64,000 nt of DNA from an uncultured Candidatus Saccharibacteria bacterium (GTDB lineage Bacteria > Patescibacteriota > Saccharimonadia > Saccharimonadales > CAZDQS01), in NCBI GenBank assembly GCA_964507855.1, contig CAZDQS010000004.1:14888-78887 (forward strand), written 5' to 3'. Made by a program: the position numbers and the translations under genes. Shown here one piece after another: positions 14,514 to 60,260 of this stretch. The notes under the pieces were generated by a model, which saw only the letters and a program-made list of their open reading frames with translations, was not told the origin of the DNA and did not search any database. Positions within the stretch are counted from its first letter, which is position 1, and the number at the start of each line of letters is the position of its first letter.

Positions 14514-14768
14514 ATGAAAACAGCACAGTTGATCAACAAGGCAGTAGAAGTTAACTCTTTTTACTTCACCCAAGGAAAACAATTTAAGTCATTTCCGGCA
14601 CGCATTACTGTCGACAACCGTCAGTACGCGTTCCAGTCGGGCCTGCAAATGCTCATAGAGAAAGGCCAGCAGGCCATCCGGCTGTTCCAGATGACCGACG
14701 GCAGCGCGACTTACCGGATCAAGCAAGAGGGCGGCCAATGGGTGCTGCTCAGCATAGCAAGGGGGTAA
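14514..14768 (+). CDS. hypothetical protein (84 aa)
   Basis: ORF with strong SD (AAAGGAG) 8 nt upstream of the ATG. Confidence 0.5.
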   Translation: MKTAQLINKAVEVNSFYFTQGKQFKSFPARITVDNRQYAFQSGLQMLIEKGQQAIRLFQMTDGSATYRIKQEGGQWVLLSIARG

Positions 14769-14773
14769 TTCAT

Positions 14774-15172
14774 ATGGAAACGACTATGGATCCAAGACCG
14801 GTCAAACCGACCAAAAACAGTTGGGCTTTCGCGGTTGATTTAGGCCGCACAGTCGGGAGAAACAGCTCTCGATTCGGGCGTGCCGGACGCTCTCGCTTGA
14901 GCCGAGTTTCGGTGCGGCGGCGAGAAACGCAAGGGAGCCGTACAGGGAAGTACGGTGACCGCGTATCGAAGCCGACAAGCCGGAAATCGGCCAAGAGGAC
15001 AGCGGGGTCTCCGGCTTTGCCAGAGAGCAGACCGTCCGGCGAGAGTGTCCGGCGATGTGTCATTACGGCCTGTTCCAAGGAAGCCAAGGCTTTTGGCATC
15101 AAAGCCGGGATGCGCTACGAAGAAGCAAAAAGGCTCATCCCAGAACTGCGAATATTAATCTATAACCGCTAG
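14774..15172 (+). pseudogene. Y-family DNA polymerase N-terminal fragment carrying a palindromic insertion
   Basis: C-terminal 38 aa (RCVITACSKEAKAFGIKAGMRYEEAKRLIPELRILIYN) resemble the conserved N-terminal finger region of DinB/UmuC. The ORF stops after it, lacks the DxxxFF catalytic motif and contains family-1 element copy A. Confidence 0.35.
14883..15052 (+). repeat. family-1 GC-rich palindromic insertion element, copy A (170 nt)
   Basis: Terminal helix 14883-14896/15039-15052 (14 bp, one G.U); inner helix 14901-14912/14980-14991; core alignable to 17045-17185. Confidence 0.7.
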
Positions 15173-15188: not shown

Positions 15189-15536
15189 ATGGACTACGAA
15201 TTAGAACCAGTCGACGAGAGCGTCGGCACTTCAGTACACATGGGCTTCCCCAATGCTGCTGTAGACACACGCCTGACCGGCCTGGACATCAGCCAGCTGC
15301 TCATCAAGCGGCCGCACAGCACGTTCTTTATGCGCATATCGGGTAACCAGTGGAGCCGCGACGGCATATTTGACGGCGACATCGCTATCATCGACCGGGC
15401 GCTGAACCCGCAGGTGACCGACCTGGTCGTCTGGTGGCAGGAAGACAACGAGTTTGCTATCTCGCTCTTCAGCCGCGTGCGCAAAGGATGCCCGGTATGG
15501 GGGGTTGTCACGAACATAATCCACCAGTTCCGATGA
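15189..15536 (+). CDS. UmuD-like S24 peptidase-fold protein, catalytic residues substituted
   Basis: Aligns by eye to UmuD (GFPNAA..., DGDIAIIDR). The GDSM serine motif reads GNQW and the TVKK lysine position reads AISL. ATGA overlap with umuC. Confidence 0.75.
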   Translation: MDYELEPVDESVGTSVHMGFPNAAVDTRLTGLDISQLLIKRPHSTFFMRISGNQWSRDGIFDGDIAIIDRALNPQVTDLVVWWQEDNEFAISLFSRVRKGCPVWGVVTNIIHQFR

Positions 15537-16810
15537 AAACCCGCGTATTTGCACTCATAGATTGCAACAATTTTTTCGTCTCATGCGAAAGGATCTTCCG
15601 GCCAGACCTCGAAGGCAGGCCCGTTGTCGTACTGTCCAGCAACGACGGCTGTGCTGTCGCCAGGTCGAACGAAGCCAAGCGCCTCGGCATCCCCATGGGC
15701 GCACCCGCTTTCAAGTACCGGCAGCTGTTCGAGCGGGAAAGGGTCGTACGGTTCAGCGCCAACTTTGAGCTCTACAGCGATATCTCCCGGCGGATAACCC
15801 ATATACTTACTGAAGTTACGCCGCGTATTGAGATCTATTCTATTGATGAATCATTCCTAGACCTTTCGACGCTCGACATCCGTGATTATGAGGCATGGGG
15901 CAGGGCAGTGCGGACACGCATCCAGAAGGAGGTTGGCGTACCGGTTTCTGTCGGCATCGCACCCACCAAGACGCTCGCCAAGCTCGCCACCGAGTACGCC
16001 AAGCAGCATCCGGACTCCGGCGGCGCTACGTCATTCATAGACAAAGACCTGAAGCCCTACCGGCAGCATATTGCCCTGGAAGACATCTGGGGTATTGGCT
16101 GGCGCCTCGCGCCTCGCCTGCGGGCGCTTGGCCTCGCCACGGCCGATGACGTAGCCGGATTACGTCCACAGCTTGCCCAAAAGCTCATGGGTATCCACGG
16201 CCGCCAGCTGGTGTACGAGCTGAACGGCACGGCATGTTTTCCCATGGAACTCCTGCATCAAAAACCCAAGAGCATCGCCCGCACCCGTACCTTTGGCGAA
16301 GACACCCGGGAGTTTTATGTACTGGAGGCAGCTGTCGCTAACTTCGTCACCCAGGCCGCCTTCCGGCTGCGCCAGTCCGCCCAGCTGGCCCGCCGCTTAG
16401 GCCTATTCCTCTGCAGCAATAAACACAAACCCAATTACCAGATATGGAACCAAGAGGCGGTGTTCCAGGTACCGACAGCCGACACAGGACAGCTCATTTC
16501 CGCCGGCATCGCCTTGCTAACCGACATGTACGAGCCTACCACCGAATATCATCGGGCAGGGGTGTGGCTGCATGACTTTGTCCCTGCTGATCAACTTCAA
16601 ACCGACCTACTCGGCACCGTCGACGTGCGTGAACACGCCCGCGCCATGAGCCGCATGCAGGCCATCGACGGCATCAATAACCGCTACGGCCGCCGCACCA
16701 TCCGCTTCGCCGCCGAAGACCTCGCTCAGGCCTGGCAACCCAAACACGGCTTGCGCAGCCCCCGCTACGTTTCCACTTGGGAAGAGCTGCCACTCGCGCG
16801 TATAGTATAA
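15533..16810 (+). CDS. umuC: Y-family DNA polymerase (UmuC-type, Pol V catalytic subunit)
   Basis: FALIDCNNFFVSCERIF..., VLSSNDGCAVARSNEAKRLGI, SIDESFLD motifs. Start moved to the MKTRVF ATG overlapping the upstream stop. Confidence 0.9.
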   Translation: MKTRVFALIDCNNFFVSCERIFRPDLEGRPVVVLSSNDGCAVARSNEAKRLGIPMGAPAFKYRQLFERERVVRFSANFELYSDISRRITHILTEVTPRIEIYSIDESFLDLSTLDIRDYEAWGRAVRTRIQKEVGVPVSVGIAPTKTLAKLATEYAKQHPDSGGATSFIDKDLKPYRQHIALEDIWGIGWRLAPRLRALGLATADDVAGLRPQLAQKLMGIHGRQLVYELNGTACFPMELLHQKPKSIARTRTFGEDTREFYVLEAAVANFVTQAAFRLRQSAQLARRLGLFLCSNKHKPNYQIWNQEAVFQVPTADTGQLISAGIALLTDMYEPTTEYHRAGVWLHDFVPADQLQTDLLGTVDVREHARAMSRMQAIDGINNRYGRRTIRFAAEDLAQAWQPKHGLRSPRYVSTWEELPLARIV

Positions 16811-16821
16811 TCACCTCTGTT

Positions 16822-17622
16822 ATGAAAGCCACCGACCAGCTACTGGCAAAATATCCGCTTATTTCCGACCAAATTAGCCGGGAAGAGTTGGGCGTGGTTT
16901 TGCGGGAGTTGGAAACAACACTGCAGCAAAGTGTTCCTGGAACAGTGGTAGAGTTCGGCTGCTACAAGGGCACAACCAGTCTGTTTATCCGCCGACTGCT
17001 AGATTACTACAAGGATTCACACCGTACGGTCGGAGTACCTGCACTTGAGCCAAGTTTCGGTGCGGCGGCGAGGAACGCAAGCGAGGCGTACATGTCGTAC
17101 GGTGAGCGCGTACCGGAGCCGCCCAGCCGAAAATTGGCCAAGAGACCGGCAGAGTCTCTGGCTTTGCCAGAGAGCAGGCCGGACGGTGCAGGTACTCCGA
17201 GGGAGTTCCATGCGTATGATTCTTTCGAAGGCTTGCCACCCAAGAGCAGGGAAGACCAGAGTGCCGCCGGCGTGGATTTCACAGCTGGCGAACTCGCGAT
17301 CAGTAAAAAGCAATTTCTGAAAGAATTCCACAAAGCAGGATTGCAACCACCTATCACGCATAAGGGCTGGTTCAATGAGCTTTCCGATAAGGATATCCCA
17401 GAAGAAATTGCCTTTGCGTTCCTCGATGGGGATTTTTATGGTTCCATCAGGGATTCGTTGCAGCTCGTTTGGCCGCGGCTGCACGAGCAGGGGGTGATAT
17501 TGATTCATGACTACAAGCGTGAGACGCTGCCCGGGGTAGAGAAGGCGGTGCACGAGTTTCTGCAGGACAAACCGCACCGCCTGAGGTACGAACACAATAT
17601 TGCGATTGTGGCGCAATCTTAA
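16822..17622 (+). CDS. TylF/MycF-type class I SAM-dependent methyltransferase with a 59-codon in-frame insertion
   Basis: VEFGCYKGTTS (SAM-binding loop), DSFEGLP, LDGDFYGS, ILIHDY motifs; insertion between ...KDSHR and EFHAYDSFEG. Confidence 0.8.
   Translation: MKATDQLLAKYPLISDQISREELGVVLRELETTLQQSVPGTVVEFGCYKGTTSLFIRRLLDYYKDSHRTVGVPALEPSFGAAARNASEAYMSYGERVPEPPSRKLAKRPAESLALPESRPDGAGTPREFHAYDSFEGLPPKSREDQSAAGVDFTAGELAISKKQFLKEFHKAGLQPPITHKGWFNELSDKDIPEEIAFAFLDGDFYGSIRDSLQLVWPRLHEQGVILIHDYKRETLPGVEKAVHEFLQDKPHRLRYEHNIAIVAQS
17030..17200 (+). repeat. family-1 GC-rich palindromic insertion element, copy B (171 nt)
   Basis: Perfect 15-bp terminal helix 17030-17044/17186-17200; inner helix 17049-17060/17127-17138; central CGTAC hairpin. 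Confidence 0.75.
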
Positions 17623-18097: not shown

Positions 18098-18144
18098 TTG
18101 AAAGTACCAAAGTAAAAACCGGAGGCTAGCTCCGGTCATTACTT

Positions 18145-18299
18145 TGGTGACCTCACGGGGAATACAGGTATAATCCGCCCGTTTGCCAGCACGCTGGCGG
18201 GGGATTATCGAACCACCTGGGATTCGATTCCGTTTCTCGGCGAGAAACTACCAATGAAAAACACCCACCAAAAGAGTGGGTGCCTTTCATTGGTGACCC
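18145..18299 (-). repeat. 155-bp direct repeat, distal copy (starts with the 3'-terminal 19 nt of tRNA-Glu)
   Basis: 150 of 155 positions identical to 19168-19322. On the minus strand it reads terminator hairpin, three further hairpins, then ATTCCCCGTGAGGTCACCA. Confidence 0.85.
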
Positions 18300-18514: not shown

Positions 18515-19090
18515 CTAATTGGTCGGTGATAGAGTTTTAATAGAGTCGTCCACTGATTTTCGGTAGGTGCCACTGAAGAAACCATCGCCCGCATGCGTGG
18601 GGTCATAGTAATAGAAGTAATCACCGACAGTCTTGTGAGACCAATTGTTTTGTGTTGCACAATCTTCGTTAGTATCACACCTAGCTAAACCTGATTTTGT
18701 ACCTGTCTTCGCTCGATACAGCAGACCCATCTTTTCCTGTGTCTCAGGACCACCACTTAGCTTACCCTCAGCTTCGAGCGAAGGACTGGTTAGACGAACC
18801 GATTCTATCCCCCTATAGTTTTGGTAGTTCTCGTAGGTGAGATCTTGAATCTCATTCGGTACACTAATTTGCACACCCCATTCTTTAATATCGAGGTATT
18901 TACTATTGCTTGCTTCTTTATTTGCTTGATTTGTTGCTGATGACTGTTCGAATTGAGCAGTGCTGGTAGTCTCTTTATTCTTGTTGCTCTGGCGGTCGTA
19001 TACGAGCCAACCCACAGCTCCAAGTAGTCCAACTACAACTACTACGATAAGTATTTCAACGACACTAAAACCTTTTTGATTAGCTTTCAT
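18515..19090 (-). CDS. type IV pilin-like protein (prepilin-type N-terminal cleavage/methylation domain)
   Basis: MKANQKG/FSVVEILIVVVVVGLLGAVGWLVY: G-F cleavage site, Glu at +5, hydrophobic helix. AAGGAG SD upstream of this ATG. Confidence 0.8.
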   Translation of the reverse strand: MKANQKGFSVVEILIVVVVVGLLGAVGWLVYDRQSNKNKETTSTAQFEQSSATNQANKEASNSKYLDIKEWGVQISVPNEIQDLTYENYQNYRGIESVRLTSPSLEAEGKLSGGPETQEKMGLLYRAKTGTKSGLARCDTNEDCATQNNWSHKTVGDYFYYYDPTHAGDGFFSGTYRKSVDDSIKTLSPTN

Positions 19091-19167
19091 ATATTCTCCT
19101 TTATTCTCCTTATGCTCGTTTATAACATGAATGAAATAAAAAAGCACTTGTTAAAGTACTCAATCAT

Positions 19168-19322
19168 TGGTGACCTCACGGGGAATACAGGTATAATCCG
19201 CCCGTTTGCCAGCACGCTGGCGGGGGATTATCGAACCGCCTGGGGTTCGATTCCGTTTCTCGGTGAGAAACTACCAATGAAAAACACCCACCTGAAGAGT
19301 GGGTGCCTTTCATTGGTGACCT
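19168..19322 (-). repeat. 155-bp direct repeat, tRNA-proximal copy
   Basis: See 18145-18299. Its last 9 nt (19314-19322) are the real 3' end of tRNA-Glu. Confidence 0.85.
19276..19313 (-). terminator. Rho-independent terminator directly after tRNA-Glu
   Basis: Minus strand: GGCACCCAC-TCTTCAG-GTGGGTG followed by TTTTTC. Confidence 0.7.
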
Positions 19323-19388
19323 CACGGGGAATCGAACCCCGATTGCCAGGATGAGAACCTGGTGTCCTAACCGTTAGACGATGAGGCC
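19314..19388 (-). tRNA. tRNA-Glu (anticodon CTC)
   Basis: Manual cloverleaf: GGCCTCA/TGAGGTC acceptor (one G.U), D arm GTCT-AACGGTTA-GGAC, anticodon arm CCAGG-TTCTCAT-CCTGG, T arm CGGGG-TTCGATT-CCCCG, encoded ACCA. Confidence 0.92.
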
Positions 19389-19879: not shown

Positions 19880-21646
19880 ATGCAAACCGTAAAACCATAT
19901 TGGTACCGCCTCTATTACGGCTGGATGCTCCTCTATAGCATCGGGCTGCTTGCTGGCTTTTTTGCGGTTAAATACTTCCCGTCGCTTGAGTCACTCGGCC
20001 AACATTTTGAGCTTACAACCACAACGGCACTCTTGTCCGGGCTATACCTCTTTTACGCACTAACTGTTTTCTGGTTTATACGCAAACGCAATGAGCAGTT
20101 AGCATTATTTGCGGGACTGTGGATCTTCGCCATGATTCTCCTTAATGGACTGGGGCAGACCAACCCGCACTTCAGCAACCTCCTCTATGCGCTCCCCTGG
20201 ATTGCCATGGCGGCATTCAACGGCATGTTCGGCGCGCCTATCGCACTTGGCTCGGTGTGTCTCACGGGCGTGTATATCGTACTCGAACACGAGTTTGACT
20301 TCATGAGCTTGAGCGGTGTTTCCGTGTTCCTGTTTGTTGCCGATGCCATTGCTGCCTACGGCTGCTACCGCTTATGGCGACGCGTCTATATCAACGTCAA
20401 CGAGGCACGCATTCAGCAACTGACCGGAATGATTGTCAACAAAGACGTGCAGTCCCAGATACTCATTGAGTCCATTAACGAAGGTGTCATCGGCTTTGAC
20501 CACGAAGGTGTTGTGCGCATCATCAACCCGGCTGCCGCCAAGCTTACCGGCTGGGACACCAAAGACGCCCAGAACCTCGATGTCAACGCCGTCATGATGC
20601 TCGCACAAGAAGACAGCACCCCGCTCGAGAGGGAAGAAAACCCAATTTCCTTGGCAATTACCAGCAAGCAACACGTCAATAAAACTTTGCAGTTAACAAG
20701 CAAGACCGGCAACAAAACAATTATTTCACTCTCTGTATCGCCAGTCATCGTGCCTGATATCGACCAGCCAGTCGGAGGCGTAGCGGTGTTCCGCGATATC
20801 AGCGCCGACAGGGAAGAGGAACAGCGTCGGGCAGAGTTCATCAGCACTGCCAGCCACGAAATGCGCACACCGGTAGCAGCAATCGAAGGCTACCTAGCGC
20901 TCGCCATGAACGACCGCGTTAGCCGGATTGACAGCAAGGCCCGGTCATACCTCGAAAAAGCCCACTCCTCCACGCAACACCTCGGCAAACTTTTCCAAGA
21001 CCTGCTCACCAGTGCGCGGGCAGAGGATGGACGCCTGGCAAGCCATCCGGTCGTGGTCGAGATGGGCGAGTTCCTTGAGAGGCTAGCAGAAGATTTGCGC
21101 TTCGCGGCACAAAAGAAGGGCCTGCAAATGGAGTTTGTCATGAGCAGCGGCGCTGCCGATCAAGTCTCAATCGACGCAACCGCCAGCAACAACAAAATCG
21201 TCCGCCCCCTCTACTACGTTCACGTCGACCCTGACCGCATCCGAGAGGTAGTTACGAACCTCTTTGATAACGCCGTCAAGTACACCGAGAGCGGCAAGGT
21301 CAGCCTCGGCCTCACGGGCGACCAAGCAGTTGTCCAGGTATACGTCCGCGACACCGGCGCTGGCATTCCTGCCGAAGACATCCCGCACCTTTTCCAGAAA
21401 TTCTACCGGGTCGACAGCTCCGCCACCCGCACAGTAGGCGGCACGGGCCTCGGCCTCTTTATTTGCCGCAAGATTGTTGAGTTGTATCAAGGTCGTATCT
21501 GGGTTGAGAGCGAACCAGGCAAGGGCAGCACCTTCTACATTAACTTGCCGCGCCTCGGTACTGCCCGGGCAGAAGAATTACGCGCAAAAGAAGCCTCCCA
21601 CCACTTATCTTCTGTTCCTGGGCATGGTACAATACGGACAACATAA
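19880..21646 (+). CDS. membrane sensor histidine kinase (multi-TM, PAS, HisKA, HATPase_c)
   Basis: H-box STASHEMRTP; N/G boxes NLFDNAVKYT, DTGAGIP, GGTGLGLFICRKIV; N-terminal hydrophobic helices. A TTGTCA-16-TACAAT promoter-like site lies about 80 nt upstream. Confidence 0.9.
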   Translation: MQTVKPYWYRLYYGWMLLYSIGLLAGFFAVKYFPSLESLGQHFELTTTTALLSGLYLFYALTVFWFIRKRNEQLALFAGLWIFAMILLNGLGQTNPHFSNLLYALPWIAMAAFNGMFGAPIALGSVCLTGVYIVLEHEFDFMSLSGVSVFLFVADAIAAYGCYRLWRRVYINVNEARIQQLTGMIVNKDVQSQILIESINEGVIGFDHEGVVRIINPAAAKLTGWDTKDAQNLDVNAVMMLAQEDSTPLEREENPISLAITSKQHVNKTLQLTSKTGNKTIISLSVSPVIVPDIDQPVGGVAVFRDISADREEEQRRAEFISTASHEMRTPVAAIEGYLALAMNDRVSRIDSKARSYLEKAHSSTQHLGKLFQDLLTSARAEDGRLASHPVVVEMGEFLERLAEDLRFAAQKKGLQMEFVMSSGAADQVSIDATASNNKIVRPLYYVHVDPDRIREVVTNLFDNAVKYTESGKVSLGLTGDQAVVQVYVRDTGAGIPAEDIPHLFQKFYRVDSSATRTVGGTGLGLFICRKIVELYQGRIWVESEPGKGSTFYINLPRLGTARAEELRAKEASHHLSSVPGHGTIRTT

Positions 21647-48848: not shown

Positions 48849-48877
48849 AATACACCGCTTGGCTAGGCGATATCCAT

Positions 48878-49116
48878 CCATGGCTAGCTTGCCCAGGCTC
48901 TGCCGGCTCCTGATACGGCGAGTGTCAAAACCACAATTTCTGCGAAGGACGTGTTTGACGGCTTTTCCTTCCTTGAAGAATTAAGAAAGAAAAGCCGGAG
49001 TTGTCCGAAGCATTGTGGCTTTTGACGACGAGCGTATCAAGAGCTGGTAGCTGCCTGCCATTTCTTTGCCTCCTTTCTTGTTGGCACAAGAAAGGAGGTC
49101 GCTCCAGCCGGAACGG
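48878..49116 (+). repeat. family-2 structured intergenic repeat, copy R1 (239 nt)
   Basis: Aligns end to end with 56129-56367. Nested helices include CTGCCGGCTC/GAGCTGGTAG, GTCAAAACCACAAT/ATTGTGGCTTTTGAC and CCTCCTTTCTTG/CAAGAAAGGAGG. Confidence 0.8.
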
Positions 49117-49136
49117 CTGAGTGAACAGTGACTTCT

Positions 49137-56094: not shown

Positions 56095-56128
56095 ATCCCT
56101 CAATAATAGCATTAACAGCTGCGGAGTT

Positions 56129-56367
56129 CCTTGGCTGATTTGGCCAGGCTCTTCCAGCTCCTGATGGACGAGTGTCAAAGCGACAATTTCTGCGCAGGAC
56201 GTGTTTGACGGCTTTTCCTTCATTAGAAAATTAGAAAAGAAAAGCCGGAGTTGTCCGGAGCATTGTCGCCTTTGACGACGAGGCCATAACGAGCTGGAAG
56301 CTGCCTGTTGCTTCTTTGCATACTTTCTTGTCAACACAAGAAAGTATGTTGGGACAAGCCGGAACGG
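56129..56367 (+). repeat. family-2 structured intergenic repeat, copy R2 (239 nt)
   Basis: Helices CTTCCAGCTC/GAGCTGGAAG, GTCAAAGCGACAAT/ATTGTCGCCTTTGAC, GGCTTTTC/GAAAAGCC and CATACTTTCTTG/CAAGAAAGTATG. Confidence 0.8.
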
Positions 56368-56378
56368 ATTGGCCGAAA

Positions 56379-57686
56379 CTATAAAGCTATCTTGCTTTTG
56401 AGTTCTTCAACCTTCACACGCTCTTGCTCAGTAGTATCGCGATTACGAACCGTAACCGTTCCGTCTTCCAAAGTATCAAAATCAATCGTCACGCAATACG
56501 GCGTGCCGATTTCGTCCTGTCGGCGATATCTTTTACCTATGTTGCCATTGTCATCCCACATGACCGCGCCAAACTCGTCCTTCAGCATCTTGTAGACTTC
56601 TCTGGCCTTTTCCACCAGCTCGGGCTTGTTCTTCAGCAGCGGCGAAACCGCAACTTTAACTGGGGCTAGGTGCGCGGGCAACTTGAGATACACGCGCTTT
56701 TCGCCATTAACTTCATCTTCCGTGTAGGCGCTGACCAGTACGGCCATGAGAGCGCGCTCCACGCCGAATGACGGCTCGATGACATGCGGCACAAACGGCT
56801 CGCCGCCGTCCTTAGGCCTATACTCCATGTTTTTGCCGGATGACTTCTGGATGTTCATAAGATCAAAGTCCGTGCGGTACGCCAGGCCCAAGAGTTCCTT
56901 GCGGCCGATTGGATAATCAAACTCAAAGTCAATTGTGCGCTTGCTGTAATGCGCGCGCTCCTCGTCCGGCACTTCCAGCTCGTGAACCTTGTCCTTTGGA
57001 AGCCCGATGGCTTCCAGGTAGGCGTAAATATCCTTTACCCAACTCTCAAAAGATTCTTTCCACTTGTCCGGATGGACAAAGTACTCGATCTCCATCTGCT
57101 CGAACTCGCGTGAGCGGAAGACAAAATCCCGCGGAGAGATTTCGTTACGGAAGGCCTTACCAATCTGGGCGATACCAAACGGCATGTCAGGATAAAAGCT
57201 ATCTACGACGTTCTTGAAGTTCGTAAAAATACCCTGTGCAGTCTCCGGCCGTAGATAACTAACCGAAGCTTCGTCATCAACCGGCCCGACATTTGTCTTG
57301 AACATCATATTGAACTGGCGGGCTTCGCTAAACGTATCGGTCTTGCCGCACGTTGGACATTTGCTGGTGTCAATTTGGTCTTCGCGGAAGCGGGATTTGC
57401 AGTTGGAGCACTCCACCAGCGGATCGGTGAACGTATCCACGTGGCCGCTGGCCTGCCAGACTTTCTGATTCATCAAAATTGCCGCGTCCACGCCATACAT
57501 GTCTTCCCTGTCGTCAACAAACATCTTCCACCACAGGTCCATGATGTTGCGCTTCAAGGCAACGCCAAGCGGGCCGTAGTCCCACGTACCACTTAAGCCG
57601 CCGTAAATCTCGGAGCCTTGGTAAATAAACCCGCGCCGCTTACACAAGCTAACAATATCTTCTAGAGAAACTTCATCTTTTGCCAT
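56379..57686 (-). CDS. glyQS: glycine--tRNA ligase (homodimeric class II type)
   Basis: RGFIYQGSEIYGGLSGTWDYGPLG, FRNEISPR (motif 2), EPSFGVERA (motif 3); C-terminal anticodon-binding domain. Confidence 0.95.
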   Translation of the reverse strand: MAKDEVSLEDIVSLCKRRGFIYQGSEIYGGLSGTWDYGPLGVALKRNIMDLWWKMFVDDREDMYGVDAAILMNQKVWQASGHVDTFTDPLVECSNCKSRFREDQIDTSKCPTCGKTDTFSEARQFNMMFKTNVGPVDDEASVSYLRPETAQGIFTNFKNVVDSFYPDMPFGIAQIGKAFRNEISPRDFVFRSREFEQMEIEYFVHPDKWKESFESWVKDIYAYLEAIGLPKDKVHELEVPDEERAHYSKRTIDFEFDYPIGRKELLGLAYRTDFDLMNIQKSSGKNMEYRPKDGGEPFVPHVIEPSFGVERALMAVLVSAYTEDEVNGEKRVYLKLPAHLAPVKVAVSPLLKNKPELVEKAREVYKMLKDEFGAVMWDDNGNIGKRYRRQDEIGTPYCVTIDFDTLEDGTVTVRNRDTTEQERVKVEELKSKIAL

Positions 57687-57886: not shown

Positions 57887-58579
57887 CTAGGCTCGCAAAA
57901 ACTGCTGGGCCATGGACCGCACCAGCTGGCTTCCCCGCTGGAGCACGCTGTCGATATCCTTCACCTGGCCCAAAACTTCCGGCGAATCAATCCCGAACAC
58001 CAGGCGCAGGAACTTTATGTGATTGGCGGTGTACATCCCCTGCTCATGCGGAATGAACGCCATGTTCTCCAGATCAAACGTGTATAACGTACCGACATCG
58101 AGCTTCTGACCCGTAGCGTCGGTGCGGAGGTTCGGCTGGTGTCCAGCAAGTTTGAGCAGCTGCGCGTCAAACCAAGCAGTCAAAAGTTCCGGCGGTAAAT
58201 TGCTATCATCAAGCCCCTCAAACGTAGCGCTGAGCAGATCAAAATATTCCCGGCCGGCAGCATCTTCCGTTGATTTGTTGAGGCGCTTGATAAGCTCATA
58301 GCCGAGCATCGTCCGGCTAATATCTTTCACAATGTTGCCGAAGTGACGGTGCAGTCTCGTAGATACGAGCGTACCAATCTCGCCCTTGCCCGGGATAAAG
58401 CTTAGTTCCGAAATGCTGAATAATTCAATCCCGCCCGCCAGCTTGCTTGTGCTCTTTCGCACACCCTTGGCCATAAGCCGCAGCTTGCCGTGGTCGGGCG
58501 TTAAGACGGTCAAAATACGGTCCGCCTCGCCGAAGTCCGTGCGGAACAGGATGATACCGTGGGTAAGGATTTGTTTCAT
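57887..58579 (-). CDS. recO: DNA repair protein RecO
   Basis: GIILFRTDFGEADRILTVLTPDHGKLRLMAKGVRKSTSKL (OB-fold N-terminus). Start at MKQIL, with a 4-nt overlap on the upstream regulator stop. Confidence 0.88.
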   Translation of the reverse strand: MKQILTHGIILFRTDFGEADRILTVLTPDHGKLRLMAKGVRKSTSKLAGGIELFSISELSFIPGKGEIGTLVSTRLHRHFGNIVKDISRTMLGYELIKRLNKSTEDAAGREYFDLLSATFEGLDDSNLPPELLTAWFDAQLLKLAGHQPNLRTDATGQKLDVGTLYTFDLENMAFIPHEQGMYTANHIKFLRLVFGIDSPEVLGQVKDIDSVLQRGSQLVRSMAQQFLRA

Positions 58580-58962
58580 TGTGACGCTGGAGCCAACACA
58601 CTTTCGACGCACTGCACCAGCCGCCGCAACTTCGTGGTGGGCTTGTATAAATACTGCTTTACCCCGAGTTCATGCCACAACGTCGTATCAAGCCCGGGGT
58701 TGCTGGCGGGCAAACCGGTCAGTAGGATGACTGGAACCTCTTGCCAGTCAGCATAGGAGCGAAACTCATAGAGGAACTCGATGCCATTATGCCCAGGAAG
58801 CTGCATTTCCAGCACCACCACGTCCGGTGTGGCACTATCAGCAACATGAATAGCAGCTTGCGCTGACGCAGCGTGCATCACCTCGTGGCCCCCACCCTCT
58901 AAAGCGGCTGTATACGTATGCGCTAGTACAGGATCCGGTTCAACTAACAACACCCTCGTCAT
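58576..58962 (-). CDS. single-domain response regulator (CheY-like receiver)
   Basis: VLLVEPD, DVVVLEMQLPGHNGIEF, LLTG and K in LYKP receiver motifs. Confidence 0.85.
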   Translation of the reverse strand: MTRVLLVEPDPVLAHTYTAALEGGGHEVMHAASAQAAIHVADSATPDVVVLEMQLPGHNGIEFLYEFRSYADWQEVPVILLTGLPASNPGLDTTLWHELGVKQYLYKPTTKLRRLVQCVESVLAPASQ

Positions 58963-59004
58963 ATACCTCTAACTTTACCATGCGCTTCATTATTTCACCG
59001 CCGC

Positions 59005-59242
59005 GCTTCGCTTGGCCGGTGACCTACTTTCTTGTGTCAACAAGAAAGCTAGGCAAAGAAATGACGGGCAGCTGCAGCCACGTAATGCATCTGTTGGTAA
59101 AAAAGTAGCTTGCCTCGGCAACTCACCACCTATTGTGCCACCGGCACAATAGGTGCCTCAGACACTCCGAGGAAGCCAAGCGCGCTACTTTATTACAACA
59201 TCTGCTCAGGTGGCTCGCAGAGCCCGAACAAACCAGCCATGG
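59005..59242 (-). repeat. family-2 structured repeat, copy R3 (238 nt, inverted orientation, diverged interior)
   Basis: Reverse complement starts CCATGGCTGGTTTGTTCGGGCTCTGCGAGCC and ends with the hairpin CCTAGCTTTCTTG/CAAGAAAGTAGG. It keeps the family helices with different sequences (CTGCGAGCC/GGCTGCAG). Confidence 0.7.
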
Positions 59243-59289
59243 AGTGCCTAGCAACACAGCTTCTATAGGATTAGCCGTCTTGGCGGCAT

Positions 59290-59526
59290 CCTTGGCTGGT
59301 TCCCCAGGCTCTGAAAAATCGATGCTAAAAGCCGCTGTTTGGGCGAATCAAGCCGGCACGCGGTCCTGCCCACTCATATAGAAAATTTGGGCGGGGCCGA
59401 CAGGATGGAGTTGTGCCAGCGCGCCTCAAACAGCGAGATTTTGGCAATCGTGCTTTTTCAGTTGCCTGTCGTTTTTTGTCCAACTTTTTGTCGACACAAA
59501 AAGTTGTGCGGGGCTGGCCCGAAGGG
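59290..59526 (+). repeat. family-2 structured repeat, copy R4 (237 nt, diverged)
   Basis: Starts CCTTGGCTGGTTCCCCAGGCTCTG. Helices CTGAAAAA/TTTTTCAG, GCTGTTTGGGCG/CGCCTCAAACAGC and CAACTTTTTGTC/GACACAAAAAGTTG; same length and architecture as R1 and R2. Confidence 0.7.
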
Positions 59527-59543
59527 ACAGACCGAAAAATGCT

Positions 59544-60260
59544 CTAGACTAAAGCCAACTGCTGGCTCGGCACAAACGTCGCTGCAAGACCACTGCGTCG
59601 GTGATGTTTGGCCACCCTCAATTGCGCCGACATGCTGGACAGAATTGACTCGGCGATGAACAGCCCGGCGCCGCTGCTTGCTACCACGTCGCTTAATGGA
59701 TGACGTGCCTTGCCATGCAATGCCCGTGCCCGGTTGAGTGCGTTAGCATTCAAGCCCTCAACATCAGCATAGACTCCCGCTACGATTCCGCCCCGCCGGC
59801 GGTGCGCACCCATGACTAGTCGCTGGGATTTTGCAGCCTGGTGACTCTGCGCCTCAATCAGCACCTGGCCAATATTGGCAAGTGCGTACTCCAGGCCTTC
59901 CCGATTAGCCATCACCGGCTCGTAGCGCCCGCCAATCTCCAGCTCCAGCTGGCTGCCATACTGTTTTGCCAAGCCATCAAGTCGGTGGGCAGTGTCATAC
60001 AAAACCGAGGCAAGCGACACAGGCTCAAGCTGCAAAGAGACCTGCCGTTGTATCAAATTATTACTCAGCAAATAACTATCAATAAAATGCAAGGCCCTGT
60101 CAGCGGCCACTTCAATGTGGGGCAATAGGTCAGTAACGTCCCGCCCGGACCTGGCCAACTCACTGAAAGTTGATATATGCAGCAGCGGTACTTTGAGCTG
60201 CTCAGCCAATGCCTCAAGCAGCTTCTCGCTATCGTTCGTTGGTGCGAAATCGCGCGCCAA
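59544..60260 (-). CDS. cytoplasmic histidine-kinase-like protein (DHp-like helix + HATPase_c-like domain)
   Basis: Possible H-box PLLHISTFSELAR, N-box-like LEYALANIGQVLIEA, G-box-like SSGAGLFIAESIL; no TM segments. Confidence 0.6.
   Translation of the reverse strand: MARDFAPTNDSEKLLEALAEQLKVPLLHISTFSELARSGRDVTDLLPHIEVAADRALHFIDSYLLSNNLIQRQVSLQLEPVSLASVLYDTAHRLDGLAKQYGSQLELEIGGRYEPVMANREGLEYALANIGQVLIEAQSHQAAKSQRLVMGAHRRRGGIVAGVYADVEGLNANALNRARALHGKARHPLSDVVASSGAGLFIAESILSSMSAQLRVAKHHRRSGLAATFVPSQQLALV

Follow-up and report, generated by a model that had tools for sequence, protein, structure and literature searches.

Two copies of a dispersed repeat lie between a kinase-like gene and a response-regulator gene

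In the 64-kb stretch of a Candidatus Saccharibacteria genome analyzed here (the window), a gene for a kinase-like protein and a gene for a response-regulator receiver protein lie on the same strand, separated by 581 nt (58963-59543). The regulator gene still overlaps the RecO open reading frame (ORF) downstream, as in relatives, and the only ORFs inside the gap are mechanical ones of at most 106 aa. These coordinates bear out an earlier sequence-only reading of the window, in which a same-strand gene pair was described as split by a gap without a credible ORF. The gap holds two copies, R3 and R4, of a repeat with a unit of ~260 nt and no conserved ORF ("family 2"), and two further copies, A and B, are present elsewhere in the window (Table 1).

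Repeat finding and BLAST over the whole window showed that the left half of the gap, inverted, matches repeats at 48919-49099 and 56169-56349, which are 84% identical to each other. An nhmmer profile made from the four copies matched the window exactly four times, with nothing else below an E-value of 0.03. Because the E-values of a profile made from these very copies are circular, an independent profile made from metagenome copies of the candidate phyla radiation (CPR) is more telling, and it recovered all four (B, 1e-29; A, 8e-21; R3, 7e-15; R4, 8e-08). The membership of R3 and R4 in the family, as proposed earlier, is thus borne out. So is their arrangement: they are in opposite orientation, with their 5′ boxes 47 nt apart. 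The sense strand is the plus strand for A, B, and R4 and the minus strand for R3.

When the four stretches of ~275 nt each were aligned, a conserved 5′ box (CCWTGGCTGGTT..CCAGGCTCTG) and a conserved 3′ region (AGCTGCCTG..TTTCTTTGC..CTTTCTTGT-N4-ACAAGAAAG..GCCGGAACGG) became apparent. The central ~150 nt are unrelated in sequence among A/B, R3, and R4, yet self-complementary. The pattern of the 3′ hairpin, here called P3, had no match in 100 shuffles. The gap is confirmed not to be an assembly artifact; Logan contigs from other sequencing runs are 100% identical to it, one spanning the whole gap (L119) and another reaching the center of the R3 palindrome (L120). Copies A and B each lie between two minus-strand genes; at A, ~10 nt separate the 3′ end from the stop codon of the gene for a PIF1-like helicase, and at B, the 3′ end abuts the GlyRS stop codon (0 nt). 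The 3′ end of R4 is ~4 nt from the stop codon of the convergent kinase-like gene. A rule that the 3′ end abuts a convergent stop codon was nevertheless rejected, since it holds for B, R4, and a few metagenome copies and not generally.

Table 1. Coordinates of the genes, repeat copies, and junction features discussed in the text. E-values of the four-copy profile are circular, as that profile was made from the copies listed.
Feature	Coordinates	Strand	Remarks
Inserted block, 570 nt (R3 + R4)	58972-59541	n/a	Absent from the junction of relatives; bounded by a direct repeat
TAGAG direct repeat, left copy (CTCTA on the plus strand)	59542-59546	-	Holds the stop codon TAG of the kinase-like gene
TAGAG direct repeat, right copy	58967-58971	-	Overlaps the Shine-Dalgarno sequence GAGG (58966-58969), 3 nt upstream of ATG
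Imperfect third copy, TAGAA	59264-59268	-	Between the 5′ ends of R4 and R3; from reading of the sequence
Kinase-like gene, 238 aa	59544-60260	-	Conserved C terminus (alignment); DHp-like CpxA match
Response-regulator receiver gene	58576-58962	-	Pfam Response_reg, E = 2e-15; ORF coordinates
Copy A	48860-49127	+	Four-copy nhmmer profile, E = 1e-72
Copy B	56113-56379	+	Four-copy nhmmer profile, E = 2e-73
R3	58996-59268	-	Four-copy nhmmer profile, E = 5e-62; same orientation as the flanking genes
R4	59272-59538	+	Four-copy nhmmer profile, E = 2e-56; antisense to the flanking genes; most diverged copy
R3 5′ box (CCATGGCTGGTTTGTTCGGGCTCT)	59219-59242	-	Conserved box
R4 5′ box (TCCTTGGCTGGTTCCCCAGGCTCT)	59289-59312	+	Conserved box; pairs with the R3 5′ box in the predicted read-through RNA
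R3 hairpin P3 (core CTTTCTTGT-TGAC-ACAAGAAAG plus base extension), preceded by TTTCTTTG	59023-59053	-	Cross-phylum 3′ module
R4 hairpin P3, variant (AACTTTTTGT-CGAC-ACAAAAAGTT)	59472-59495	+	Compensatory changes
R3 long-hairpin apex, perfect 13-bp palindrome	59127-59155	-	GAGTT motif comes after it in RNA sense

The 570-nt block is an insertion at a stop/start junction

Three homologous loci from Saccharimonadales relatives, encoding proteins 52 to 58% identical to the kinase-like protein of the window, were compared with the locus. All three have the order XseA-XseB-methyltransferase-hypothetical-kinase-like-regulator-RecO, followed by GlyRS where the contig of the relative reaches that far (L122 and L123). 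The junction between the kinase-like and regulator genes in these relatives is a 4-nt overlap (L122), a 3-nt gap (L123-125), or a 1-nt gap (L126). The relatives were checked for the same long spacer, and it was absent from all three. With three syntenic relatives lacking the spacer, the reading of the gap as an insertion is strongly supported. That the spacer is ancestral and serves the regulator gene as a regulatory region or leader is, in comparison, very improbable: the regulator gene does have its own Shine-Dalgarno sequence, and nothing else was found in favor of a leader, whereas every relative examined is without the spacer and the gap is made up of two repeat copies whose family also occurs at unrelated loci.

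The block was shown to be an insertion that leaves both ORFs and the Shine-Dalgarno sequence intact and that is made of two family members. Because the conserved C-terminal ending is present (PSQQLALV, which in the alignment fits the family ending PSQQLxLV to the last residue), the kinase-like protein is untruncated. Read on the gene strand, the sequence runs ...GTC TAG AG|CATTTTT...(570 nt)...GGTAAAGT|TAGAG GTAT ATG. The left TAGAG gives the stop codon of the kinase-like gene, and the right TAGAG gives the GAGG ribosome-binding site of the regulator gene. Removal of the block together with one TAGAG leaves GTC-TAG-AGGTAT-ATG (GTCTAGAGGTATATG), a junction that resembles those of the relatives. 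TAGAG is the sole 5-mer common to the sequences compared on the two flanks. It is a candidate target duplication, notable by its position alone, and no more than a candidate because a 5-mer match is expected by chance.

As an event, the insertion is of an ordinary kind. We consider it likely that the block is foreign noncoding DNA, namely, two members of a dispersed, structured, ~260-nt repeat resembling BOX elements or a miniature inverted-repeat transposable element (MITE) without terminal inverted repeats, and that translation of the two genes has been uncoupled by it.

Each copy is predicted to fold autonomously

Minimum free energies predicted for the single copies ranged from -107 to -124 kcal/mol (R3, -124; R4, -114), and the predicted folds share one architecture. 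It consists of a weak terminal helix that joins the 5′ box to the 3′ tail; a long hairpin, ~80 bp in length and closed by CAGGC/GCCUG; the tract YUUCUUUG, which is left single stranded; the hairpin CUUUCUUGU-N4-ACAAGAAAG with a 4- to 5-bp extension; and a last short hairpin followed by CGAAA. The assigned sense strand was more stable than its complement by 6 to 15 kcal/mol in all four window copies.

For a 611-nt read-through RNA of the gap, the predicted energy was -267 kcal/mol (z = -8.7). The sequence-only reading had proposed that the two inverted copies, besides folding singly, could fold against each other into a long imperfect duplex. Only part of this stands. The 5′ boxes do pair across the copies, but this is the only pairing between them; R3 and R4 each keep their own long hairpin, the rest self-folds, and the ~150-nt cores are unrelated. 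The models thus show each copy as one that would fold autonomously. Consensus scans of the gap detected no sigma-70-like promoter and no intrinsic terminator. RNAalifold, run on the sequence-based full-length alignment, recovered P3 alone because the long hairpins are not alignable by sequence.

A 3′ module is shared across phyla

A search for the pattern CTTTYTTGT-N3-CACAARAAAG in one genome per species gave at least 118 stretches, some of which are unrelated A/T hairpins. The whole module, that is, a G-rich run, YTTCTTTG, 4 to 5 nt, the hairpin, and the complementary 4 to 5 nt, was present at 76 distinct sites among the matches listed. The sites are in the CPR (Saccharimonadales and Parcubacteria), in Betaproteobacteria (many Burkholderiales, including cultured Pelomonas and Roseateles), in Rhodocyclales, in gammaproteobacterial metagenome-assembled genomes (MAGs), in Gastranaerophilales (Melainabacteria), in Oscillospiraceae (Faecousia; Clostridia), and in one Campylobacterota genome. 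BLAST added the Ralstonia GMI1000 megaplasmid, Variovorax, and Comamonas; in the search of plasmids, the only matches were intergenic copies without annotation, on replicons of these three genera. Across these groups, the modules differ by a few bases only.

The hairpin core was fixed by the search pattern, so its invariance is no evidence; the four pairs of the base extension were left free. These pairs covary. There were 85 doubly changed cells compared to 23 in shuffles, and 0 of 500 shuffles reached the observed value. For example, one pair was UA in 19 cases, CG in 13, GC in 13, and AU in 5. Paired cells made up 96.8% in the real structure compared to 42 to 56% in slid controls. Variants found independently of the pattern also keep the hairpin by compensatory changes, both in Ralstonia (CTTTCTTTG/CAAAGAAAG) and in Pelomonas (CTTTCTGG/CCAGAAAG), as does the R4 variant (ACTTTTTGT/ACAAAAAGT). 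The P3-closing pair is G-U in 34 of 56 copies.

A second motif, GAGTT, was present in 48 of 64 distinct copies, at a distance of 60 to 80 nt upstream of the module, compared to 5 of 64 control windows. Its usual context is YUGUYUGAG-(apical hairpin)-GAGUU. The closing helix of the long hairpin shows compensatory change between phyla, being CAGGC/GCCUG in the CPR and CGACC/GGUCG in Gastranaerophilales. In 48 of 66 copies, the sense strand gave the more stable fold (mean difference, 4 kcal/mol; P = 2e-5). The idea that a small conserved ORF runs through the module was rejected: the frames differ, many copies contain stop codons, and the variation is of the hairpin type.

Such features raise the possibility of a functional RNA module, the sense strand of each copy specifying a structured RNA such as a small RNA, an RNA of a guide-like or retro-mobile kind, or an antitermination-like signal of BoxA plus hairpin, in which case the pair in the gap would be co-opted divergent RNA genes. 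YTTCTTTG, P3, and GAGTT are conserved across phyla within a variable scaffold; P3 and the long hairpins vary in a compensatory manner, even between the halves of a Ralstonia pair described below; and the P3-closing G-U, the more stable sense strand, and the variable 5′ region with a sharply defined 3′ end would all fit. We nevertheless regard this explanation as unlikely. There is no promoter consensus between the two 5′ ends (45 nt) or elsewhere in the gap and no terminator after the module. Three of the four window copies are antisense to co-directional genes, so that read-through would yield the wrong strand. Dozens of copies are present per small genome with no conserved synteny, and no Rfam family matches. 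Finally, G-T is also the best-tolerated mismatch in single-stranded DNA, so the strand bias is no proof of RNA.

Head-to-head pairs and a probable history of two insertions

Modules with enough upstream sequence to be testable numbered 119. An inverted partner lay 284 to 460 nt away from 16 of them (8 pairs, outward facing), and a same-strand copy lay upstream of 5. Head-to-head pairs were seen in Pelomonas (L030), Ralstonia GMI1000 (L127), Comamonas (L128), and Saccharibacteria (L131). In the betaproteobacterial pairs the halves are near-palindromic, and the inverted symmetry reaches past the module. The pair on the Ralstonia pseudosolanacearum GMI1000 megaplasmid (NC_003296.1, near position 302.6 kb; L127, ~2063-2585) is a near-palindrome of ~520 bp in a genome that is complete and well studied, and the PLSDB gene table, which omits RNA and repeat features, has nothing at this site. 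The two GMI1000 halves differ by compensatory substitutions within their own long hairpins (gttgcaagg/ccttgcaac compared to gttacgggg/ccccgtaac). Because these changes fall within each half's own hairpin, the comparison speaks for a separate structural constraint on either half. The Saccharibacteria example (L131, 13443-13930) is a pair of different copies in facing orientation, and ~71 nt separate the bases of their long hairpins; for R3 and R4, the same measure is ~80 nt. A different layout, represented among the five modules with a same-strand copy upstream, was observed in a Zoogloeaceae MAG (L061, 118-1656; L115, 5700-6479). There, the module recurs head to tail every 368 nt in tandem arrays free of ORFs, unlike the solo and head-to-head copies elsewhere.

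Because similar head-to-head pairs occur in the other Saccharibacteria genome and in Betaproteobacteria, nested or targeted insertion at the present locus, suggested earlier, is plausible. Clustering of small repeats and their insertion into one another have been documented for the pneumococcal BOX, RUP, and SPRITE elements (PMC10969869). Two successive insertions into the same TAGAG target are most likely and are favored over a single composite event because the cores of R3 and R4 are unrelated and solo copies predominate. In the window itself, A and B are solo copies, and the imperfect TAGAA between R3 and R4 would fit, if weakly, serial insertion into the same target.

A one-step insertion would instead have brought in a ~570-nt composite head-to-head unit, with the 3′ modules as long inverted ends and TAGAG as its duplication. 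The perfect TAGAG copies are the outer two only, outward-facing pairs recur at the above spacing in the genera named and in one Saccharibacteria genome, and the inverted symmetry of the betaproteobacterial pairs goes past the module. However, the unrelated cores mean that the pair is no inverted duplication; solo copies are in the majority (A, B, and ~87% of testable modules elsewhere); and the outer termini are not mutual inverted repeats past the module, the R3 side being ~16 nt longer. Taken together, a composite unit is considered unlikely.

Dispersal of the repeat

A stricter pattern for the CPR branch was found in 45 metagenome stretches, at least 16 of which are on scaffolds of one Saccharibacteria assembly (Ga0155608). 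Like MITEs, the repeat is small, noncoding, multicopy, and dispersed, with four copies among unrelated neighbors in 64 kb, and clustering of flanking ORFs at ~80 loci gave no conserved neighbor or partner gene. The 3′ boundary is sharp (...CGMAA plus ~5 nt), and the 5′ region is variable and mosaic. Many CPR copies end in ...CGMAA-N5 followed by YTA. Alignment of the 5′ end with the 3′ end recovered just the internal stem CAGGC...GCCTG, and classification as a MITE by strict definition was rejected for the want of terminal inverted repeats, the defining criterion.

A parent element was sought between inverted modules and downstream of them (L071, L005, L018, and L052), where only ordinary housekeeping genes were found. 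Searches of existing collections were likewise negative. Rfam 15 at the gathering threshold, applied to the window and 19 loci from other phyla, reported only tRNAs and one SAM riboswitch; permissive Rfam scans of the gap and one Pelomonas copy gave matches at chance level only. The module scan of IMG/VR gave 0 matches, and BLAST against a phage collection gave none. The literature searched by sequence returned Gateway attB2 primers only, and the literature on MITEs (in Ralstonia, Saccharibacteria, and Patescibacteria) and on REP-type repeats does not describe the element.

Many of the matches lie at contig ends; the module is within ~100 nt of one in L003, L007, L018, L043, L056, L078, L082, L087, L091, L096, and L109, and the contig L120 ends in the R3 palindrome. 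This pattern suggests that assemblies are interrupted by the repeat. As breaks in or beside the element are frequent, its copy number is probably underestimated in draft genomes.

Proposed origin of the gap and its consequences

According to the explanation preferred here, insertion of foreign repeats, two copies would have landed on the stop/start junction of a normally translationally coupled operon encoding the kinase-like protein, the regulator, and RecO. The duplicated TAGAG would have retained both the upstream TAG stop codon and the downstream GAGG, keeping the two genes intact. Because the gap is without a consensus promoter or terminator, we infer that the operon is still read through as one transcript. 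The stop/start coupling between the kinase-like and regulator genes would be lost, and the regulator would be translated from its own ribosome-binding site, behind 570 nt of untranslated RNA. This stable RNA might be a substrate for double-strand-specific RNases, RNase III, as suggested in the sequence-only reading, being a plausible one, or might give rise to Rho-dependent polarity. As a result, the ratio of the kinase-like protein to the regulator could shift.

Several points weigh against the insertion of mobile repeats with these effects. First, TAGAG is only 5 nt long, and ~2 shared 5-mers are expected by chance in flanking windows of the size compared. Second, the relatives with an empty site share only 52 to 58% protein identity with the window, and no near-isogenic empty allele was seen. 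Third, hallmarks of mobility were absent where they were sought. No terminal inverted repeats were found when the 5′ end of each copy was compared with its reverse-complemented 3′ end. No transposase, integrase, or reverse transcriptase is located beside any copy examined (in the window, the transposase scan covered 20 of the ORFs). No consistent target duplication was found around A, B, or the metagenome copies, including in a search for duplications of 6 to 9 nt around 30-odd other copies. Fourth, the covariation and the modest sense-strand preference could mean a functional RNA instead of passive DNA. Finally, all of the effects on expression are inferred from the sequence.

What is unusual here is the element and not the insertion: it has a multimotif structure and a cross-phylum 3′ module, and no cataloged family matched it. 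One tentative possibility is that family 2 is the Saccharimonadia branch of an uncataloged cross-phylum superfamily that acts as a folded single strand, either RNA or DNA. Members of such a superfamily would have a long hairpin of free sequence with an internal UGUYUGAG...GAGUU motif, the single-stranded YUUCUUUG, a nearly invariant CUUUCUUGU-N4-ACAAGAAAG hairpin with a covarying base, and a second short hairpin. They might be spread by widely transferable or host-encoded machinery, and the sharp 3′ end, variable 5′ end, and strand bias would be compatible with an RNA-templated or guide-RNA-like mechanism. That the element is a genuinely undescribed class with a mechanism of its own is similarly possible but less likely than not. 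If it were, a widespread family would be added to the catalog of bacterial repeats and noncoding RNAs, and one would have to ask which machinery recognizes the invariant hairpin in such different cells. The locus offers a clean natural case in which a small repeat would have disrupted stop/start coupling within a signaling operon, and this in a reduced CPR genome with almost no intergenic space. It is also a testable case of selfish repeats retuning the stoichiometry of partner proteins.

Flanking genes and other features of the window

The kinase-like protein has more than 300 homologs of ~230 to 245 aa each, and in Saccharimonadales the genes of this family (~235 to 245 aa) are always upstream of a receiver-only regulator and RecO. 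A Pfam scan of the protein gave no match, including HisKA and HATPase_c, and its profile gave a weak match to the DHp region of CpxA (E = 6e-5). The family has an invariant Glu (LAEQLKxPL) where the phospho-accepting His (SHELRTPL) would be; the best match in PDB, a CpxA chain, likewise has E there (ISEELRTPL). The earlier label "histidine-kinase-like" is therefore weak: the DHp-like match speaks for it, but the lack of a Pfam match and the replacement of His by Glu do not. Identity as a sensor histidine kinase was rejected for the same gene, as neither HisKA nor HATPase_c nor the His is present. From its sequence, the product is best called kinase-like and not a demonstrated kinase; a pseudo-kinase or a partner of phosphatase-like function is possible. 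Elsewhere, the window encodes a canonical sensor histidine kinase (19880-21646) with PAS, HisKA, and HATPase_c domains, and in principle this bona fide kinase might act on the orphan-like receiver. For the regulator protein, a look-up by exact match returned no record.

Other repeats were observed in the window. Two direct repeats of 155 nt (18144-18298 and 19167-19321), 97% identical and 1,023 nt apart, flank a 210-aa ORF (18515-19147) with a type IV pilin-like N-terminal methylation motif, and the second overlaps the 3′ end of a tRNA-Glu gene (19314-19388). The arrangement may reflect either the integration of a small segment or a duplication local to the tRNA gene. Another pair (14896-15039 and 17044-17186), 82 to 92% identical and 2.1 kb apart, is located around a Y-family DNA polymerase gene (15434-16810). 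The ORF at 14738-15172 holds just part of the IMS domain, which suggests that a gene was partially duplicated there or has become a pseudogene. The plus-strand GC skew is negative in 15 of 16 4-kb bins regardless of gene orientation, and the window therefore lies on a single replichore, with the minus strand leading.

Comparison with known repeats

BOX elements of Streptococcus pneumoniae (boxA-boxB(n)-boxC) are dispersed, noncoding, intergenic repeats of a few hundred nucleotides, with conserved end modules, a variable middle, and long stable stem-loops. They have no transposase, and to our knowledge the mechanism of their mobility has not been established. The element here is also modular and stem-loop forming, with no transposase found beside the copies examined. 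It has, however, no sequence similarity to BOX, which is confined to streptococci, whereas the module here is nearly invariant across phyla. Its fold also differs, being made of three parts (one long hairpin and two short 3′ ones) and carrying a GAGTT motif. Clustering with other repeats and insertion next to them is a further likeness to BOX (PMC10969869).

Unlike the Correia elements (CREE) of Neisseria, the element here is without terminal inverted repeats, and its candidate duplication is TAGAG. These small Neisseria repeats carry an IHF site, are bounded by terminal inverted repeats of 26 bp, and duplicate a TA target. They lie between the genes of operons and are cotranscribed with them, and RNase III cleaves their hairpins, which changes mRNA stability. 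By analogy, they would be the best precedent for the possible role of RNase III at the present locus.

Other comparisons were less close. The REP/BIME/REPIN group consists of extragenic palindromes, often of alternating orientation, that take on structure as single strands and occur in many copies (PMC2817692). The element here is likewise structured, multicopy, and at times found as inverted pairs, but REPs are 20 to 40 nt long and specific to the RAYT of their genome, whereas this element is ~260 nt long with several hairpins and cross-phylum motifs. Assignment to REP/REPIN was rejected, given a unit of ~260 nt with three or four helices and GTAG only within the variable P3 base; a RAYT was not sought. 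Ends of IS200/IS605 elements, PATEs, and TnpB guide-RNA scaffolds resemble the element in their asymmetry, subterminal hairpins in place of terminal inverted repeats, one-strand structure, and sharp 3′ end next to variable flanking DNA. In contrast to IS200/IS605, no TnpA or TnpB is next to the copies examined, the Rfam models IS605-orfB and HEARO gave no match, and a short direct repeat, which would be unexpected for IS200/IS605, flanks the block. No conserved 5′-flanking tetra- or pentanucleotide target was demonstrated among the copies, whose 5′ region is variable. Integron attC sites were also rejected. The aligned copies have no GTTRRRY/RYYYAAC cores, are found in either orientation, and do not mark cassette boundaries, and the Zoogloeaceae tandem arrays, holding no ORFs, do not fit either.

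Miniature repeats can yield structured small RNAs, as QMITE1/2 of Coxiella do for Cbsr3, Cbsr13, and Cbsr16 (PMC10969869). There, the sequences and organisms are unrelated to those studied here, and the present element is known from sequence alone. The closest analogs are the modular, transposase-less structured repeats, such as BOX, together with the operon-embedded Correia elements (PMC10969869).

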